64,000 nucleotides of DNA. It comes from a bacterium. Its GTDB lineage: Bacteria; RBG-13-61-14; DATKZS01. Where the stretch lies: assembly GCA_046484135.1 (NCBI GenBank), contig JAWOBU010000269.1:401-64400 (forward strand). Direction: 5' to 3'. The translations under genes were made by a program, and so were the position numbers. The notes beneath the pieces are model-generated. The model had not been told where the DNA came from. It saw nothing but the letters and a program-made list of their open reading frames with translations, and searched no databases. Position 1 is the stretch's first letter. Each line of letters opens with the position of its first letter. Positions 35,241-43,176 of this stretch are shown piece after piece.

Positions 35241-36029
35241 TCAGCGTTCCGGTCGGGCGCGGTGGTGCCGCATGCGGGAGCCGGGCCAGGCTTTAAGATA
35301 CGAGTGCTGGCCTGTGATGTCCTCAATGGTGTAGTCCACCACCTGGTCCCAGTTCTCCTCCCGGTCCTTCAGTATCCGCTTCATCTCTTTCAGCTTCTCC
35401 TCCAGCCGCTCGATCCTCTCCTTGTTGTTTTCATGCTGGATCTTGAGCTCTTTTTCCACCAGGGGCCGGAGCTCTTTCTCGATCTCCTTTTCCCGGCTCT
35501 CGCTGTCAGTAGTGCGGTACTCCTCGGCCAGCTCGCGGATTCTGGTAAGCCGCTCATAACGCTCGGGGTCGGTCTGTTTGATCCGCTCCAGGTGCCTGCC
35601 GCGGCCCATACCGGTTCCGGCCGCTCCCATGGAACGACCCGTGCGTGGGCGCTCTCCGGCAGCACGTCCTTTCCCGTCCCGGTCGCCGCGGCGCGCCATC
35701 CAATCATGGTGCCCGTCACCGCGCATCCGGCCATGGCCTTCCGGGTGAGCCATCCTTCCATGACCGCTGCCCACTCCAGCATCCATCAGACCGCTCCCGT
35801 CGCGACGATGGCTACGCACTCCCTTTCCAGAACCATTGCCTTCACGAGGGGAGTCCATGCCGGCAAAGAGCGGCAAGTCGGAGCTGAACTCCTCCTGAAA
35901 AGATTGGCCTTTCACGCCGGCCTTTGCTTTATCGAGCCTGTCCGCGCTTGTCTTGCCCAGATAGGCGAAGCCGCCTATCGTCAACGTCAGCACCGCCATG
36001 CCCACTATCATCCATGCCAGTTTTTTCAT
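35241..36029 (-). CDS. Membrane-anchored/periplasmic protein with a His/Met/Gly/Arg-rich region and a C-terminal coiled coil
   Basis: N-terminal TM/signal, GHGRMAHPEGHGRMRGDGHHDWM tract, heptad-like EKELKIQHENNKERIERLEEKLKEM; last gene of the ECF sigma operon. Confidence 0.55.
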   Translation of the reverse strand: MKKLAWMIVGMAVLTLTIGGFAYLGKTSADRLDKAKAGVKGQSFQEEFSSDLPLFAGMDSPREGNGSGKGVRSHRRDGSGLMDAGVGSGHGRMAHPEGHGRMRGDGHHDWMARRGDRDGKGRAAGERPRTGRSMGAAGTGMGRGRHLERIKQTDPERYERLTRIRELAEEYRTTDSESREKEIEKELRPLVEKELKIQHENNKERIERLEEKLKEMKRILKDREENWDQVVDYTIEDITGQHSYLKAWPGSRMRHHRARPER

Positions 36030-36079
36030 TGTTTTGCTCCTTTCATATTAAGTCGGTTTCATGTTTAAAAAAGCCCGCT

Positions 36080-36754
36080 TCAGTAGTCCTCCGGATATGA
36101 CTCGGCAAGGCCCATCTCATACTCGAGCTCGTTTACGGCCACCTCTATATCGTCAACCGCGGAGGCCTCCACAAACACGTAGTCCAGAACTTCATCCTGC
36201 GCATCCGCGGTTTCATTCTCCGACGCGGGGGTTTCCTGCTTTTCGGGCTGGGCTTCGGTGTAATGTTCCGCGGTGTCTCCGCCTAAAAGCAGGGCCTCTT
36301 CCCGGTACATCATCTGTTCAAGATCATCTATCTCCGTCTCCATTGCGACCAGGTAGGAAGGTACCTCGGATTTTTTCCGCGCTTGTCGGACATCAGAAGC
36401 GCGGTCCGTGAAGAAACTCTGATTTATAATGAGTGCAAGGGCCAGCACCAGCACGGCCGCCGCGGGGACCAGCACCCGCGGATTCGAGAAGACCCCGCCA
36501 AAAATGGATTTAATGGCCCTTCTTTGTTTACGTTTTGCCTTTTTCCGGACCGCGGCCACGGAAGTTTCCGAGGGGATGTCCCACGCCTCGCCGGTGGCGG
36601 CCCTTACTTCGCCTATCATGGAAAGGTAGGCCCCGCAGGCCGGGCAGTCCCGCACGTGCGCGGCGATGGCCGCGTCCGGGGACTCTCCATAAGCGAAAAG
36701 CAGAAGGTCGCCGGTGGAAACCTTGTCACAGCCGTGCTCGTAAAACGGTTTCAT
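36080..36754 (-). CDS. Anti-sigma factor (zf-HC2 type), single TM
   Basis: AAHVRDCPACGAYL (H-x3-C-x2-C), central TM segment; ATGA overlap with the sigma factor gene. Confidence 0.7.
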   Translation of the reverse strand: MKPFYEHGCDKVSTGDLLLFAYGESPDAAIAAHVRDCPACGAYLSMIGEVRAATGEAWDIPSETSVAAVRKKAKRKQRRAIKSIFGGVFSNPRVLVPAAAVLVLALALIINQSFFTDRASDVRQARKKSEVPSYLVAMETEIDDLEQMMYREEALLLGGDTAEHYTEAQPEKQETPASENETADAQDEVLDYVFVEASAVDDIEVAVNELEYEMGLAESYPEDY

Positions 36755-37302
36755 TTTTTCTCCTCCGCAAGCGGGCTCAGCTCTTGCCGGAGCTTCTTCA
36801 TGGCCAGGTGCATCCTGGAGAGGACGGTGTTCAAGTTGGTCTCCTTCATGCTTGCTATCTCTTTAAAAGAAAGTCCTCCATACTCGCGCAAAAGGAAGAC
36901 CTCTTTCTGCTCGGGGGAAAGACTTTCCAAGGCCCCCTCCAGGGCTTTTTTCATCTCGTTTTTCATGGTCCGGGTCTCGGGGTCCTCTCCTCCCGCGTAC
37001 TCAGGAGGATCGGCCTCCATGCTCACCGGGTCGCGCTTCCTCCGCCGGAGCCGGTCTTTTGCCAGGTTCGTAGCTATGGAAAAGACCCATGTCGAAAAGC
37101 TCCGGTCCGAATCAAAGCTGTCCCGGTGTTTGACCACCCTGATGAAGGTGTCCTGAAAGATGTCCTCGGCTTCCTGTCGGTCTCTAACCATTCTCATGAC
37201 CACCGTGAAAAGCGGCTTCCGGTAACGCTCCAAAAGCTCCTCGAACGATCCCCTGTCACCTGCGCGATATCTGTCAAACAGCTCCTCGTCGGAATTCTTC
37301 AT
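36751..37302 (-). CDS. ECF (group 4) RNA polymerase sigma factor
   Basis: 183 aa. Region 2 (FEELLERYRKPLF...DIFQDTFI) and region 4 (LSPEQKEVFLLREYGGLSFKEIA) patterns. Confidence 0.85.
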   Translation of the reverse strand: MKNSDEELFDRYRAGDRGSFEELLERYRKPLFTVVMRMVRDRQEAEDIFQDTFIRVVKHRDSFDSDRSFSTWVFSIATNLAKDRLRRRKRDPVSMEADPPEYAGGEDPETRTMKNEMKKALEGALESLSPEQKEVFLLREYGGLSFKEIASMKETNLNTVLSRMHLAMKKLRQELSPLAEEKK

Positions 37303-37473
37303 TATGCTCTCCGATTTCCCGCTTCCATTAGATACTACGAACGGAAGACGGATTTATTTGAACAACGCCGGGTGTTCCCGTTTGGGTTAAAATAAAAAAG
37401 CAGGGCTTCTTCGCCCCGGTGCGGAAAGGATAAAGTTTCCTGGACAAAAGTCGGGGGGGTAAAAAATATGCAT

Positions 37474-37503
37474 AAAAAAGGGCGGCAAAGCCGCCCTTTT
37501 TTA
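37474..37503. terminator. Bidirectional intrinsic terminator
   Basis: AAAAAA-GGGCGG-CAAAG-CCGCCC-TTTTTT; directly follows the RRM gene stop (37508) on the minus strand. Confidence 0.65.
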
Positions 37504-37507
37504 CTTT

Positions 37508-37789
37508 TTAAAACCTGTTTTGCTGAGGTTTCCTTTTCTGCTGCTCCCTGGCATAGTTCACCTTGAGGTTTCTTCCCTCAAAGGCATAGCCGTCGAGCGC
37601 GTCTATGGACTGCTGGGCTTCGTCTTCCGTTCCCATTTCCACAAACCCGAAACCCCTGGACCTCCCCGTCTCGCGATCGGTTATGATCCTGCATTCCACT
37701 ACCTGTCTCCCGTCGCCCTCGAAGAGCTCGCGCAGAGCCTCCTCCGAGGTACGGAAGGGCAGGTTGCCCACGTACAAACGATTACTCAT
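37508..37789 (-). CDS. RRM-type RNA-binding protein (93 aa)
   Basis: RNP2 LYVGNL and RNP1 RGFGFVEM motifs. ATG at 37789 with AAGGAG RBS; the upstream part of the track ORF is unlikely to be coding. Confidence 0.8.
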   Translation of the reverse strand: MSNRLYVGNLPFRTSEEALRELFEGDGRQVVECRIITDRETGRSRGFGFVEMGTEDEAQQSIDALDGYAFEGRNLKVNYAREQQKRKPQQNRF

Positions 37790-38265
37790 CTCTCTTTTCT
37801 CCTTTTCGAAACTTGACCGCTTACGGTCTTCCATCCTCGCTTCCGGGCCGCGATCCAGAAGCCTCCTTACCAAGCCCTGCTGACGAAGCCGTGCATCCTT
37901 TGCGATCAAGCGAACGAAAGGAGCCGATCGAGCACGAGCCGTCCGGGTAGATTACTTCGCGGCGAACTGCCCGGCTATTTAATTGTAGATTACTCCAGTA
38001 TTTTCAATCTGTCAATATGGAAATTGAAAAAAAACGAAATAAACTCTCCGCGCCGGCGAGGAAAAAGCCGGGCCTGTAGAACACTCTTTTTATGGACCGT
38101 TACCGAAAAACCTTCCCCCTCTTAAAACCATACCGGCCCTGATGCGTTTTACCCTGACAGGTTTTGGAAACAGCCGGTCGCTATATTTGGCCGGACCCGG
38201 TTGCCGGAGATAAAATTCTTCCGGTACCAAGAAAGATGAGGATTCAAACAAAGGAGAGAGTAAAG

Positions 38266-41200
38266 ATGAAATCTTACGCTGCCATCGCAACCCTGTTTCT
38301 GGCCATGTTCCTGACCCTGTTCAGCACGGGAGAAACCAGGGAGAACCCGGTACTGGACGTCTACGTTTTCTCGCCGGCGGAGCTCGATCCCGGCTCCCGC
38401 GCCTCCTTCCGGGTGGTGGTCAAGGAAGCGAAGAGCCTGACCGACTCCCGGCCGGTGGAAGGCGCCCGGGTGTGGGTAGGCTTAAAGGGCGAAGAAGACC
38501 ATTCCCTTTTGGTGGCCCGGACCAATGAGTCGGGCAGTATAACCCGGTCGGCGCGAATACCCGATGTGCCCGCGGGAGATGATTACGAGCTCGAGGTCCG
38601 GGTATCATCCCGGCTCGGAACAAAGAAGCTCAGCAAAGAAGTAAAGATAGCGCCGCGCTACCGGGTGCTCCTAACTACTGACAAGCCGCTCTACCAGCCG
38701 GGGCAGCTCATCCACATCAGGTCGGTGTCGCTGGGCATGGCCGAGCTTTCGCCCGTGGCAAATGAAAAGGTGGTCCTCGATGTCGAGGACCCGCAAGGCA
38801 ACAAGGTGTTCAAGAAGATCGGCGAGACCGACGAGTACGGCATCTTTGCCGCGGACTTTCAACTGGCGTCGGAAATCCGACTGGGCAGATACCTGGTCCG
38901 GGCCAGCGTGGGTGACCGGAGCGCGGAAAAGACAATCAAAGTTGACCGCTACGTGCTTCCCAAGTACAAGGTGGTCCTGGACACCGACCGGAGCTACTAC
39001 AAGCCGGGCGAGGAGGTGCACGGCACGGTGAGCGCCAACTACTTCTTCGGAAAGCCGGTTGCGGGCGGCAAGGTAGAGGTAACCGCAGAGGCCTTTGACG
39101 TGGAGTTCCACAAGGTGGCTGAGGTTACCGGCCGCACCGACGACGACGGCAACTTCGAGTTCGAGCTCGAGCTTCCCGACTACTTTGCCGGACAGCCCTT
39201 GGAGCAGGGGGACGCTTTTGTAAAGATCACCGCCAAGGTAACGGACCAGGCCGAGCACGAGGAAGAGGCCACGGTACAGCGCAAGGTGTCGGCCACCGAC
39301 CTCAACCTTGCGCTGGTGCCGGAGGCCGGCCGGATCATTCCCGGGGTCGAGAACACCATCTACGCGGTGGCGTCCACCCCGGACGACAAGCCGGCCCGCG
39401 CCCGCGTAACCATCAAGGCGGGAGACAAGACCATGACCGCCCGCACCGGCCGGGCGGGTATCGCGTCCGTGTCTTTCGTGCCCGAGGCCGACGACTTCCT
39501 GCGTCGCGGCAACAAACTTCATCTTTCCATCCGGGCGCACGCAGAGGACAGGCGCGGCAACGAGGTCGAGATAAAAAAGGACTTATCCGCAAAGGACACT
39601 AATGACAATGTCATGTTGCGCACCGACCGGGCGCTCTACACTGCGGGCGAGGACATGGAGCTCGAGGTCCTGTCCACCCGTGGCACCGGCACGGTTTACA
39701 TAGACCTCATCAAGAACCGGCAGACGGTGCTCACGCGGTCGGTGGAGATCAAGGACGGCAGGGGCCACACCCGGGTCTCCATTGGACCGGACGTTTTCGG
39801 GACCGTCGAGGTCCACGCTTACTCGATCCTGGGCGACGGCGAGATCATGCGGGACAGCCGGGTGGTCTACATCGAGCCGCAAGACGACCTCGATATTGAC
39901 GTGTCCCTGGACAAGGACACCTACCGGCCGGGGGAAGAGGCCCGGCTTGTATTCAAGGTTACGGATGATAAAGGCCGGGGAAAGGCCGCGGCCCTGGGCC
40001 TGTCCATAGTTGACGAAGCGGTGTTCGCCATCCAGGAGATGCAGCCCGGGCTTCTCAAGGTGTACTTCACCCTGGAGAAGGAGCTGGCCAAGCCGCGCTA
40101 CGAGGTCCACTTCTCGCCCGGCGGCTACACCATGGAAAAGGCGATACAGGAGCAAGAAGCCAAGGCGTCCCGCGACCGGGCCATGAAGGTCATGCTGGCG
40201 GGCGTGAAAAACCCCACCGAGCCGGAGTGGGCCAACAACCCGGCAAAGGAAAGGCTGGAAAAGGAGAAGAAACAGCTTCAAAGCTACGCCCGCAAGTTCG
40301 CTGGCTGGGCGAGCTCGCACCGGTTCCTGGAGAAAAACCGGCAGGGACAGTGGGTGTACCGGAGCGATGTAACCGAGCGGATGATAAAGGACGGCGCCAT
40401 CAGCGAGAAAAAGGCCCGCGACTCTTTCGGCGGGCTTTATAAGCCGGAGATGCTGGAGAGGGTGGATTCGATTTTCAAGCTCCCGAACTTTGCCCGCAAC
40501 ATGGCTTCTTACCGGCTGGCGGTGATCTACTCGGCGCTGAACATAATGTTCGAGGAGGAGGAAGAATCGTGGCTGGGCGGCATGTTTGACGGAGGCGAGG
40601 AGCCCGAGATAACGCCTGAGCTCCTGGATAAGATGGTAAAGAAAGAGTACCTGACAGAAGGCCACATCAAGGACCCGTGGGGGAAGCGCTACATAGTGCG
40701 CTATGACGAGGACAGCAAGCGAAACCCCTACAGCAACCAATACAAGCATTACGTGATAAAGTCGGCGGGACTGGACGGAGAGCCGGACACCAGGGACGAC
40801 ATCTCCGACCCGTGGGGAGCGGGACCCCGGTTTTATCAATATGTATCGAGAATCCGCAGAGAACAGGACAAGGGGCTTTTGGGCAGGGTCCTGGACCGGG
40901 TCCGGCCGTGGTTCTCGGTGGAGGAAAAAGCCCTGCGCCGGGCCCGGCCCGTAGCAGAAGCTCCCGAGGCCCAGGGGGGCGCTATGCTGGGCGACGCTGC
41001 GGAAATGGAAAGCACGGGCAAAGACACGAGCGGCAGCGGCTCGGGCAACCAGGGCGAACAAATCCGGGTCCGGGACTACTTCCCGGAGACCCTGCTGTGG
41101 GAGCCTTCGCTCATCACCGACCGGAACGGCCGCGCCGAGCTTACTTTGCCGCTTGCCGACTCGATCACCACCTGGCGGCTCACTGCGCTGGGTCATTCCG

Positions 41201-43176
41201 CGGACGGTATGTTGGGTTCGGTAACCGACGGCATCAAGGTTTTCCAGGACTTTTTCGTTGACATAGACTTCCCGGTACAGCTCACTCAGGGCGACGAGGT
41301 CGAGGTCCCGGTAGCGGTTTACAACTACCTTCCGGGCTCGCAAAAGATCAAGCTCGAGGTCCGCGAGCACCAGGGATTCGAGCTTCTTTCCGGGGCGGTA
41401 AAAAGACTCAGGCTGAAGACGAACCAGGTGGACGTGGTGTACTTCCGGGTGAAGGCGGAGGAGCTCGGCAAGCAGAGCCTGACGGTCTATGCCATCGGCT
41501 CGAAGATGAGCGACGCTGTGAAGCGGTCGGTGGAGGTTATCCCGGACGGCCTGCGCATGGAGGACGTAAAGAACGGGCAGATCACGGGAGACCTTGCCGA
41601 GACCATCAAGATACCGGATTACGCCATCGAGGACGCCAGCCGGATCATGGTGAAAGTTTACCCGGGCGTGTTCGCGCAGGTGCTGGAGGGGCTGGACAGC
41701 ATCTTCCGCATGCCCAACGGCTGCTTCGAGCAGACCACCTCGACCACCTACCCCAACGTCATGGTCCTGGCCTACATGAAAAAGACCGGCACCATCAGGC
41801 CGGAAATCCAGATGAAGGCGGAGGAGTACATCAACCTGGGCTACCAGCGACTCCTTTCCTTCGAAGTCCCCGGCGGAGGGTTCGAATGGTTCGGAAAAGA
41901 GCCAGCCCACAAGGTACTCACCGCGTACGGGCTCATGGAATTCCATGACATGAGCAAGGTCTATCCGGTAGACCCCGCGGTGATCGAAAGAACTCAGAGG
42001 TGGCTCGCTGACAAGCAGAAGGACGACGGCTCCTGGGAGCCTGCTAAGCACTGGATGGAGACCCTGTCCGGCAACGCCTTCTCGAGGTCGGTCGAGCTCA
42101 ACACCGCCTATATAACATGGTCGCTGGCCGAGACCGGCTATGAAGGACAAGAGGTGCAGAAAGGGATCAATTACTTGAAGGAGAACATGAAAGAGATTGA
42201 TGACGCTTATACCCTGGCGCTGGCCCTGAACGCGCTGGTGGCCCACGACCGGAATGATCCCGCTGCCCGCGACATCATGGACAAGCTGAACCGGCTCAAG
42301 AAAAAGGACGACAAGCGCGGGACCATCCACTGGGAGCCCGCGGGCGAGACCGCGGTGAACGGCAAGGGCAAGACCGCCAAGATCGAGACCACGGCGCTGA
42401 TCCTCTATGCCATGATCAAGGCAAGGGCTTACCCCGCCACCGTGAACCAGGGGCTTGGCTGGCTTTCGCAGCAGAAAGACGCGTTCGGGACCTTCCAGTC
42501 CACCCAGGCCACTATTCTTACATTCAAGGCCATGCTGGCCGCGGAAGAAGGGACCGGCTCGGACGTAAAAGGGGACATCACCATCAAGGCGGGAGACCGC
42601 GAGCACACCGTGTCCATCACCCCCGAGACCTCGGACGTGATGAGGATGATAGACTTCAAAGGCCAGACCGTAAAAGGCAAAAACAGAATCGAGATCGAAG
42701 CTCCCGACAACATGGGCCTCATGTACCAGGTGGTGGGCATACACTACGCGCCCTGGAAAAAGGTTGCTGAGATAAAGGGAGAGCCGCTCCTGTCCCTGGA
42801 TGTGGACTACGACCGCACGAAGCTCGAGACCAATGACGTGCTCACCGCGAATGTAAAAGCCCAGTACAACGGCGAGAAGTCAACCGAGATGGTGATCCTG
42901 GACCTCGGCATTCCGCCGGGATTCGAGCTCCTGCCCGAGAACCTGCAAAAACTGAGAGATAAGAACGTGATCGAGAAGTACAACGCCACCGGCAGGCAGA
43001 TCACGGTTTACGTGCGCAGGATGAAAAAAGGCGAGCCCCTCGAGTTCTCCTATGAGCTCAAGGCCAAGTTCCCGGTCAAGGCCAAGGCACCCAAAAGCGC
43101 GGCCTACGAGTACTACAACCCGGAGAACCGGGTGGAGACCACCCCGGTGGAGATCGAGGTAAAGAAGGCAAATTAA
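38266..43176 (+). CDS. Alpha-2-macroglobulin family protein with a thioester motif (1636 aa)
   Basis: Signal peptide after the ATG at 38266 (AAGGAGAG RBS); repeated MG-type domains; GCFEQTTSTTYPN thioester (CxEQ) motif; VRDYFPETLLWEP. Confidence 0.85.
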   Translation: MKSYAAIATLFLAMFLTLFSTGETRENPVLDVYVFSPAELDPGSRASFRVVVKEAKSLTDSRPVEGARVWVGLKGEEDHSLLVARTNESGSITRSARIPDVPAGDDYELEVRVSSRLGTKKLSKEVKIAPRYRVLLTTDKPLYQPGQLIHIRSVSLGMAELSPVANEKVVLDVEDPQGNKVFKKIGETDEYGIFAADFQLASEIRLGRYLVRASVGDRSAEKTIKVDRYVLPKYKVVLDTDRSYYKPGEEVHGTVSANYFFGKPVAGGKVEVTAEAFDVEFHKVAEVTGRTDDDGNFEFELELPDYFAGQPLEQGDAFVKITAKVTDQAEHEEEATVQRKVSATDLNLALVPEAGRIIPGVENTIYAVASTPDDKPARARVTIKAGDKTMTARTGRAGIASVSFVPEADDFLRRGNKLHLSIRAHAEDRRGNEVEIKKDLSAKDTNDNVMLRTDRALYTAGEDMELEVLSTRGTGTVYIDLIKNRQTVLTRSVEIKDGRGHTRVSIGPDVFGTVEVHAYSILGDGEIMRDSRVVYIEPQDDLDIDVSLDKDTYRPGEEARLVFKVTDDKGRGKAAALGLSIVDEAVFAIQEMQPGLLKVYFTLEKELAKPRYEVHFSPGGYTMEKAIQEQEAKASRDRAMKVMLAGVKNPTEPEWANNPAKERLEKEKKQLQSYARKFAGWASSHRFLEKNRQGQWVYRSDVTERMIKDGAISEKKARDSFGGLYKPEMLERVDSIFKLPNFARNMASYRLAVIYSALNIMFEEEEESWLGGMFDGGEEPEITPELLDKMVKKEYLTEGHIKDPWGKRYIVRYDEDSKRNPYSNQYKHYVIKSAGLDGEPDTRDDISDPWGAGPRFYQYVSRIRREQDKGLLGRVLDRVRPWFSVEEKALRRARPVAEAPEAQGGAMLGDAAEMESTGKDTSGSGSGNQGEQIRVRDYFPETLLWEPSLITDRNGRAELTLPLADSITTWRLTALGHSADGMLGSVTDGIKVFQDFFVDIDFPVQLTQGDEVEVPVAVYNYLPGSQKIKLEVREHQGFELLSGAVKRLRLKTNQVDVVYFRVKAEELGKQSLTVYAIGSKMSDAVKRSVEVIPDGLRMEDVKNGQITGDLAETIKIPDYAIEDASRIMVKVYPGVFAQVLEGLDSIFRMPNGCFEQTTSTTYPNVMVLAYMKKTGTIRPEIQMKAEEYINLGYQRLLSFEVPGGGFEWFGKEPAHKVLTAYGLMEFHDMSKVYPVDPAVIERTQRWLADKQKDDGSWEPAKHWMETLSGNAFSRSVELNTAYITWSLAETGYEGQEVQKGINYLKENMKEIDDAYTLALALNALVAHDRNDPAARDIMDKLNRLKKKDDKRGTIHWEPAGETAVNGKGKTAKIETTALILYAMIKARAYPATVNQGLGWLSQQKDAFGTFQSTQATILTFKAMLAAEEGTGSDVKGDITIKAGDREHTVSITPETSDVMRMIDFKGQTVKGKNRIEIEAPDNMGLMYQVVGIHYAPWKKVAEIKGEPLLSLDVDYDRTKLETNDVLTANVKAQYNGEKSTEMVILDLGIPPGFELLPENLQKLRDKNVIEKYNATGRQITVYVRRMKKGEPLEFSYELKAKFPVKAKAPKSAAYEYYNPENRVETTPVEIEVKKAN

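Follow-up and report, generated by a model that had tools for sequence, protein, structure and literature searches.

What is a pseudopilin-like domain doing in the middle of a bacterial macroglobulin? The question is raised by a gene on contig JAWOBU010000269.1 (assembly GCA_046484135.1), of which a stretch of 64,000 nucleotides was analysed (the window; all coordinates are positions in it). An earlier note, made from the letters alone, had pointed to an alpha-2-macroglobulin with a greatly expanded bait region and a likeness to GspG, the major pseudopilin of type II secretion systems (T2SS), inside it. Proteins of this superfamily carry a ‘cleavable-moiety’ slot between the MG6a/LNK region and the alpha'NT plug; in human A2M it holds a bait of roughly 39 residues, and in C3, C4 and C5 an anaphylatoxin domain (ANA). 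We are highly confident that in this protein the slot houses a long insert in which residues ~749-862 share their ancestry with GspG's globular part. The fuller reading is of a macroglobulin trap with a GspG-like domain in the slot, where it would act as a stopper with the true bait downstream of it; to this we give a probability of roughly 0.55. What is new is a widely conserved, previously undescribed type of cleavable moiety in a known protein machine.

The host protein is readily placed by its domains. Residues are counted throughout from the ATG at 38236, from which the frame is open for 1646 amino acids, and the gene and all of its parts lie on the forward strand. The macroglobulin (MG) body comes with A2M_BRD, A2M, TED and receptor-binding domains, which follow the canonical order of the alpha-2-macroglobulin superfamily, and each Pfam match is above its cut-off: MG2 (5e-28), MG3 (1.8e-10), A2M_BRD (4.8e-13, residues 461-598), A2M (4.5e-22, 952-1041), TED_complement (3.4e-49, 1146-1433) and A2M_recep (1.9e-15, 1549-1635). 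The thioester motif GCFEQTTS is kept, as the earlier note had said, at residues 1162-1169 of the TED domain (41719..41742; Cys1163, Gln1166). Its GCFEQ (1162-1166) follows the G-C-x-E-Q pattern of the superfamily, which predicts a thioester, and G, C, F, E, Q and T are each at least 90% conserved; all conservation figures refer to 121 sequences, the query and 120 homologues. Cys1163 is the single Cys in the 1646 residues, so a lipobox is impossible, again as had been claimed. The protein begins with a hydrophobic export segment, MKSYAAIATLFLAMFLTLFST (38266..38328), which holds the top Kyte-Doolittle 19-residue window of the protein.

Among proteins of solved structure, those most similar to the full-length query come from eukaryotes. 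First is CD109 (3.4e-67), then A2ML1, human A2M and mosquito TEP1, the four spanning E 3e-67 to 2.5e-50, and after them C3, C4 and C5. Escherichia coli YfhM/ECAM (E 7e-11) and Salmonella A2M (3e-9) are much more remote and match only over the MG7-TED region, and bMG10 (17.5 bits) and bMG5 (14.7 bits) both stay under their Pfam cut-offs of about 26. By these comparisons the macroglobulin belongs to a eukaryote-like branch (the CD109/A2M/TEP/C3 type) and not to the ECAM/YfhM type. The lack of a pbpC neighbour had been set down as atypical. It is true that no gene resembling a penicillin-binding protein (PBP) lies within about 6 kb on either side, nor beside eight homologues; however, neither this nor the missing lipobox is an anomaly, because the protein falls in the eukaryote-like branch. 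By its sequence, this member of the alpha-2-macroglobulin superfamily would be exported and would trap proteases with its thioester.

The position of the insert can be fixed from both of its edges. Upstream is the end of MG6a, VDEAVFAIQEMQPG (residues 592-605, 40009..40050), which lies 339 residues from the downstream anchor VRDYFPETLLWEP; the previous estimate of about 330 residues was close, and its coordinates were right to within a few nucleotides. V8, D9, E10, P20 and G21 of the fragment covering the MG6a end and the insert are invariant. The 353 residues between A2M_BRD and A2M have no Pfam assignment except a sub-threshold T2SSG match at 800-855. A phmmer search of the PDB with residues ~560-700, across the upstream edge, gave nothing useful. 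Downstream is an alpha'NT-like plug with the start of MG6b, IRVRDYFPETLLWEP (residues 943-957, 41062..41106). The plug segment RVRDYFPETLLWEP, which contains RVRDYFPET, aligns to C5 EIRSYFPESWLWEV from alpha-chain residue 86 onward, 12 residues past the C5a/C5b junction, and the C3 alpha chain from residue 87 and A2M from residue 730 align to it as well. The cleavable moiety of the superfamily is either a bait or an ANA and is followed by a plug with conserved R732 and F735; the partly conserved alpha'NT is threaded through the MG2-MG3 channel, and once the moiety is cut the plug retracts and the conformational change fires (PMC9352918, Harwood et al.). By alignment R946 and F949 of the query are A2M R732 and F735, and R946, F949, P950 and E951 are invariant across the family. 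Since the two residues match the A2M plug and do not vary, the insert sits in exactly the bait/ANA slot and the trigger element is intact.

The GspG-like peptide within the insert, IKDPWGKRY...DDISDPWG, covers residues 811-865 (nucleotides 40666-40830), 3 nucleotides from the start quoted in the earlier note and about 8 past the quoted end. On its own the query is a weak match. Against PF08334 it scores 15.1 bits as a full protein and 18.7 bits as the isolated module (E 0.002-0.03; cut-off 21), and against TIGR01710 it scores 13 bits where the cut-off is 88.85. Even so, Pfam offers no other match for the whole insert, and for a 90-residue module fragment it lists just one besides PF08334. The family speaks more clearly. 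A profile built from an alignment of 52 family members picks out, with E-values from 3e-10 to 1.7e-3, eight GspG/PulG/EpsG chains of known structure (GspG of enterohaemorrhagic E. coli (EHEC), 3g20; PulG, 1t92/5wda; XcpT-type, 2kep; EpsG, 3fu1/3gn9/4lw9; and another), and nothing besides these eight falls below E 0.01. Both halves of GspG align, the alpha-helical half (ALxxY...GLxxLV) and the half with DPWG...GPDG...DDI. Individually, 36 of the 52 members match PF08334 at E<=0.01, the best at 1.5e-12. The likeness to GspG/PulG that was first seen in a single peptide is thus real at the family level, and in the PF08334 check that had been proposed for it the query alone stays below the cut-off while 36/52 family members reach E<=0.01.

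Structure prediction agrees with the profile. The AlphaFold2 models cover the insert only and rest on 44-sequence alignments. Over residues 585-962 the predicted local distance difference test score (pLDDT) is 93-98 for most of ~669-874, and the module alone (residues 745-875) gives pLDDT 85.8 and a predicted template modelling score (pTM) of 0.79. The module-only model shows the pilin pattern of long helix, short helices, two strands and loop. This was the other check proposed, and the module is modelled as a folded alpha/beta domain with pLDDT >90, neither disordered nor an MG domain. The top 11 Foldseek hits are ten major-pseudopilin chains (GspG/EpsG/PulG) and the type IV pilin TcpA, with further type IV pilins next. 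A pilin-type alpha/beta fold is thus predicted; the fold evidence is specific but moderate, and the sequence profile carries most of the weight. The module (residues ~749-862, 40480..40821) can be divided into an alpha1C-like helix (749-775), an ELLDKMV helix, DPWGKRY with strand 1, strand 2 (YVIKS) and a calcium loop.

The comparison extends to the calcium loop. Its equivalent in the query, SAGLDGEPDTRDDI (residues 843-856, 40762..40803), runs from S843 through D847, T852, D854 and D855 with spacing identical to that of PulG SLGPDGVPESNDDI. Alignment to PulG and EHEC GspG equates D847, T852, D854 and D855 with PulG/OutG D117, S/T122, D124 and D125. In PulG/OutG the ligands of calcium are the side chains of D117, S/T122 and D125 (sometimes D124), together with backbone 114 and 119 (PMC13081927). 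Across the family G845, D854 and D855 are invariant and D847 and T852 are at least 90% conserved; L806 and, from the DPWG motif, D813, W815 and G816 complete the set of module residues at or above that level. Conserved residues in the insert are few, yet they include every calcium-ligand side chain, with a further group in the linker-like segment after MG6a. This pattern makes a strong case that the module would bind calcium. Without calcium PulG is disordered and degraded in vivo and OutG is not, so that the site tunes stability (PMC13081927).

On either side of the module the insert has further parts. The first, residues 606-663 (40051..40224), is a linker-like segment recognised by its conservation in the family alignment. 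It includes LLKVYFTLEKELAKPRYEVHF (family LEKVYFxLEKEIxxPRYEIH) and the helix SRDRAMKVMLAGV (family RRxxAARVLLASA), has low pLDDT (46-65) when modelled without the MG body, and is probably the equivalent of the LNK region. It is followed by an extension, residues ~664-748 (40225..40479), confined to the query and the 10 homologues nearest to it; insert length is 318-339 in this clade, compared with 206-275 in other homologues. The extension is modelled at pLDDT 96-98 as a long helix and a beta-hairpin with a second D-x-[FW]-G-x-x-Y motif (DSFGGLY, 729-735). BLASTP of the clade extension against the module gave no significant match. A module hidden Markov model built from non-clade members, by comparison, matches 11/11 clade extensions in one register, from the helix through DpWGxxY, with scores that 0-2 of 300 shuffles reach. 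Judging from these alignments, the extension probably arose when the N-terminal half of the GspG-like module was duplicated in part.

Downstream of the module comes a variable linker, residues 857-942 (40804..41061), which is enriched in Met, Gly, Ala and Pro, poorly conserved and of low pLDDT (<50 at fragment residues 305-373, protein residues 889-957). Among 111 family members this post-module linker is 47-100 residues long, the median being 75; Met is 3.1-fold over-represented in it, Gly and Ala about 1.75-fold. A Met-rich motif of the type MMKAEAMPMAAAP recurs in it, in the window (40804-41061) and in homologues, with a conceivable role in oxidation sensitivity or protease preference. Because the linker is predicted to be disordered, variable in length and sequence, and rich in Met, Gly and Ala, it is likelier than the module to be the true bait, and we propose that the scissile site would lie within it.

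The arrangement is not peculiar to this gene, as it had first seemed, and occurs in a great many bacteria from the environment. A full-length search returned 1366 relatives at E<=1e-10, one of them at 80% identity; length, anchors and insert were tallied for the best 120 of the 1366. These 120 are 1463-1853 amino acids long, most have DPWG near position 810, and 120/120 have an insert of 206-339 residues. PF08334 is precomputed on 11 of the 120. One of the homologues, a 1576-residue Armatimonadetes macroglobulin (P0050), bears the NCBI name ‘type II secretion system protein GspG’, apparently a misannotation to which the embedded module gave rise. Care must be taken with fragment queries: when the 335-residue insert alone was used in a word-indexed homologue search, no match was returned, a false negative given that relatives of 80% identity are in the database, and word-index negatives with fragments rich in low complexity are unreliable. 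In some subfamilies (homologues such as P0020, P0022 and P0030) a W-C-x-x-C or P-C-G-C-G motif that the query lacks stands in the loop connecting the module's two strands, and this could be a disulfide or metal site.

Searching with the module profile extends the picture further. Against 1.84 billion representative proteins it gave 7844 matches at E<=1e-3, of which 526 also pass E<=1e-10. Among the 150 that match best, 78 combine CxEQ with one to four full modules (one in 9 proteins, two in 21, three in 43 and four in 5), and in all of these the modules are N-terminal to the thioester. Many form a sister group (P0121, P0126, P0130, P0138 and about 70 others) of 1850-2140-residue thioester macroglobulins with 2-4 tandem modules in the same slot. 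In four of the 78, Pfam finds MG2, MG3, A2M_BRD and T2SSG (up to 1.8e-15), usually CarboxypepD_reg, and after these A2M, TED and A2M_recep; the tandem modules and CarboxypepD_reg lie between A2M_BRD and A2M. P0121, P0148 and P0153 begin with an anti-sigma zf-HC2 domain (E 6e-12 in P0121); such anti-sigma–macroglobulin fusions suggest protease-sensing signalling. Another 17 of the best 150 are short proteins with at least two modules and no thioester, several of them with ordinary signal peptides. For instance, P0135, P0140, P0141, P0167 and others, about 275 residues long, consist of an ordinary signal peptide and three tandem leaderless modules, and the GspG-like module is thus a portable soluble domain outside the T2SS and macroglobulins. 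Giant proteins such as P0122 and P0123, in which only the calcium-loop part was matched, many times over, were treated as unrelated calcium-repeat proteins. When one genome per species was scanned, at least 438 contig stretches encoding relatives were found. The 80 loci retained come from many phyla, among them Planctomycetota, Myxococcota, Armatimonadota, WOR-3, Poribacteria, Hydrogenedentota, Omnitrophota and Verrucomicrobiota, and the carriers include the cultivable Chthonomonas calidirosea and Gemmataceae.

How might such a protein work? In the native state the conserved R-x-x-F-P-E plug would be threaded through the MG2-MG3 channel. The folded and probably Ca2+-stabilised GspG-like domain would take the part of the ANA as a compact, protease-resistant stopper or spacer, holding the N-terminal side of the tether so that only the disordered stretch, about 85 residues long, would be cleaved. 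An attacking protease would cut that stretch, the plug would retract and the protein would change shape, after which the Cys1163-Gln1166 thioester could capture the protease. This mechanism of a stopper and a downstream bait is tentative, at somewhat short of an even chance, and several points weigh against it or against the reading as a whole. The N terminus of the ANA is freed by furin processing and this module would stay on MG6a, which makes the analogy positional only. The query alone falls under the PF08334 cut-off, and the Foldseek E-values (0.07-0.7, with TM-scores <=0.55) are not significant alone. The insert was modelled by itself, and the models thus give no placement of the module relative to the MG body. 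Three or four modules plus CarboxypepD_reg, as in the sister slots, are bulky for a simple stopper. A lengthened bait in human A2M impaired native-state formation (PMC9352918), and an insert of 340 residues therefore demands a docking arrangement. No biochemical data were found for any member of this branch.

Two other roles for the module are about equally unlikely. The first, close to the structured decoy or bait proposed in the earlier note, is that the module itself is the bait, or a decoy mimicking a surface-exposed pilin or pseudopilin, so that proteases attacking such filaments cut it and the trap springs. A folded module does sit in the bait slot, the pseudopilin fold can be protease-labile given that PulG is degraded in vivo without calcium (PMC13081927), and the 2-4 tandem modules of the sister proteins could offer several targets. 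However, the invariant residues include structural, calcium-ligand, DPWG-aspartate and alpha'NT positions, with no obvious surface features among them. The module is also confidently folded, whereas known baits are disordered and fast-evolving (PMC4498604, PMC9352918). The structured element that had been proposed is therefore present and is an unlikely bait, and the disordered linker of 47-100 residues fits that role better.

The second, which corresponds to the interaction module also suggested in the earlier note, is that the module is a binding or targeting domain for a T2SS or type IV pilus component, an envelope polymer or a secreted substrate, or that it is a signal fragment that is released. 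The leaderless modules in the 17 short proteins are typical of a portable interaction domain, the alpha3-beta1 loop of GspG governs secretion specificity (PMC13081927), and the zf-HC2 domain at the start of three sister proteins suggests signalling. Genomic context does not favour it: neither the window nor the eight homologue loci have a conserved neighbour or a T2SS or pilus operon, and an ECF (extracytoplasmic function) sigma factor is nearby in only 2/80 genome loci. The equivalent of the GspG specificity loop is short here, and no partner was identified.

Calcium itself could be the trigger. The module would then be a calcium-gated switch which unfolds at low Ca2+, so that the tether is lengthened or exposed and the trap is armed or fired by envelope calcium. 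PulG-like spacing of the conserved ligand residues, and the behaviour of PulG and OutG without calcium (PMC13081927), are consistent with such a switch, but calcium binding is itself predicted from sequence, and an A2M bait lengthened without a break did not trigger the change (PMC9352918). It is a less probable reading than either role above. More speculative still is the idea that these thioester proteins serve complement-like sensing and are not simple inhibitors. The pseudopilin-derived domain would then do the work of the anaphylatoxin, as a Ca2+-dependent module which cleavage of the bait by a foreign protease unmasks or releases and which then signals, directly in the zf-HC2 fusions or via a partner elsewhere. 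This would be a convergent prokaryotic ‘activation-fragment’ mechanism.

A chance motif match, in an ordinary long linker or an unrecognised MG domain, is very improbable: taken singly, the query does miss both the PF08334 and the TIGR01710 cut-off and the Foldseek E-values are above 0.05, but the family profile reaches E 3e-10 with GspG chains as its sole matches below E 0.01, the best single member reaches 1.5e-12 against PF08334, both GspG halves align, and the model is alpha/beta and not an MG beta-sandwich. Least credible is that the module works as a pseudopilin, which prepilin peptidase would process for assembly into a T2SS filament with the macroglobulin as its cargo. The homology is of the globular domain only, the module is internal, and there is neither a G-F-T-L-x-E prepilin motif anywhere in the macroglobulin nor a hydrophobic helix in the insert (maximum 19-residue hydropathy 0.72; the N-terminal signal reaches 1.7). 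Next to the gene, in the window as at the eight homologue loci, T2SS and pilus genes are missing. Because it lacks a prepilin leader, a hydrophobic helix and T2SS genes nearby, the module is a GspG-derived soluble domain and not a pseudopilin.

The gene itself and its surroundings can be described briefly. The ORF (open reading frame) finder reports the frame as 38164-43176 on the forward strand, and its TTG at 38164 is an unlikely start. There are two in-frame ATGs, at 38236 and 38266; the second (MKSYAAI...) has an AAGGAG Shine-Dalgarno sequence 9 nucleotides upstream and is probably the true start, which gives a gene of 38266..43176. There is no sign of recent insertion, with GC content even over the gene (0.56-0.67; insert 0.56-0.63). 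An antisense open frame of 1053 codons inside the gene (39583-42744, minus strand) most likely codes for no protein and merely shadows the coding sequence, which is GC-rich (about 60%). Neighbours in the window include UvrD, two unknowns, an ECF sigma factor, an RNA recognition motif (RRM) protein, Hsp20, PMT_2 and Thi4. Divergent from the macroglobulin gene is a minus-strand run at 35241-37909, with the RRM gene (37508-37909), the ECF sigma gene (36751-37302) and two unassigned ORFs (36080-36754 and 35241-36029). The closest relative, at 80% identity, keeps the gene order of the window and more distant relatives do not; no conserved operon partner was found in the window or the eight homologue loci. 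Sigma or anti-sigma genes lie near the macroglobulin in the window and at two of the first homologue loci. An ECF sigma/anti-sigma link was considered as part of the mechanism and dropped, a sigma-like ORF being present in the flanks of 2/80 genome loci.

Why does this matter? How the superfamily is triggered, one cut loop setting off a very large change of conformation, is not yet fully understood, and only two solutions for the cleavable moiety have been known, the unstructured bait and the anaphylatoxin domain. The pseudopilin slot is a third, independent design and can serve as a test case for the plug-in-channel model. The earlier note had known of no precedent; the ANA of C3, C4 and C5 is one for a structured domain in the same slot (PMC9352918), and what is new is the pseudopilin fold there. 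No paper joining a macroglobulin with a pseudopilin was found in the literature searched, an incomplete collection, nor in the same collection one joining bacterial macroglobulin, anti-sigma and thioester, and looking under related subjects brought up no relevant paper. A large bacterial branch nearer to CD109, A2M and TEP1 than to ECAM also bears on the evolution of bacterial and animal thioester proteins. The globular domain of GspG is seen here as a portable soluble module outside secretion machines, and its embedding explains the database misnaming of at least one macroglobulin.

The design is best appreciated beside the systems that it resembles. ECAM (YfhM) of E. coli and the A2M of Salmonella are, like the query, bacterial thioester macroglobulins, and are believed to capture proteases in the cell envelope (PMC4498604). 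Both are of a lipoprotein type whose gene often shares an operon with pbp1C, whereas the query has neither a lipobox nor a PBP neighbour. Human A2M, A2ML1, CD109 and insect TEP1 share with it the Pfam domain set, the thioester and the R-x-x-F plug. In contrast to the short unstructured bait of the eukaryotic A2M-type inhibitors (PMC9352918), the query has 339 residues with a folded domain, and it differs also in its bacterial host and simple N-terminal export signal. With GspG, PulG and EpsG the module shares the alpha1C-like helix, DPWGxxY, two strands and the G-x-D-G-x3-[TS]-x-D-D loop, at the spacing of PulG and EHEC GspG. It differs from them in having no prepilin leader, hydrophobic alpha1N or T2SS context, in lying inside a 1646-residue protein, and in its much shorter alpha3-beta1 loop, and it cannot polymerise as pseudopilins do. 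The ANA of C3, C4 and C5 is unrelated in fold and ancestry, being a disulfide-rich helical bundle where the module is alpha/beta and pilin-type. The insert has no Cys and no ANATO Pfam match at E<=10, and the query shows no evident counterpart of the furin processing after which the ANA is set free as a signalling peptide. Yet the two are alike in place and in setting: each is small and folded and lies between LNK/MG6a and the alpha'NT plug before MG6b (PMC9352918), directly upstream of the activating cleavage site (in the query, the proposed one), in a thioester protein of the same superfamily.

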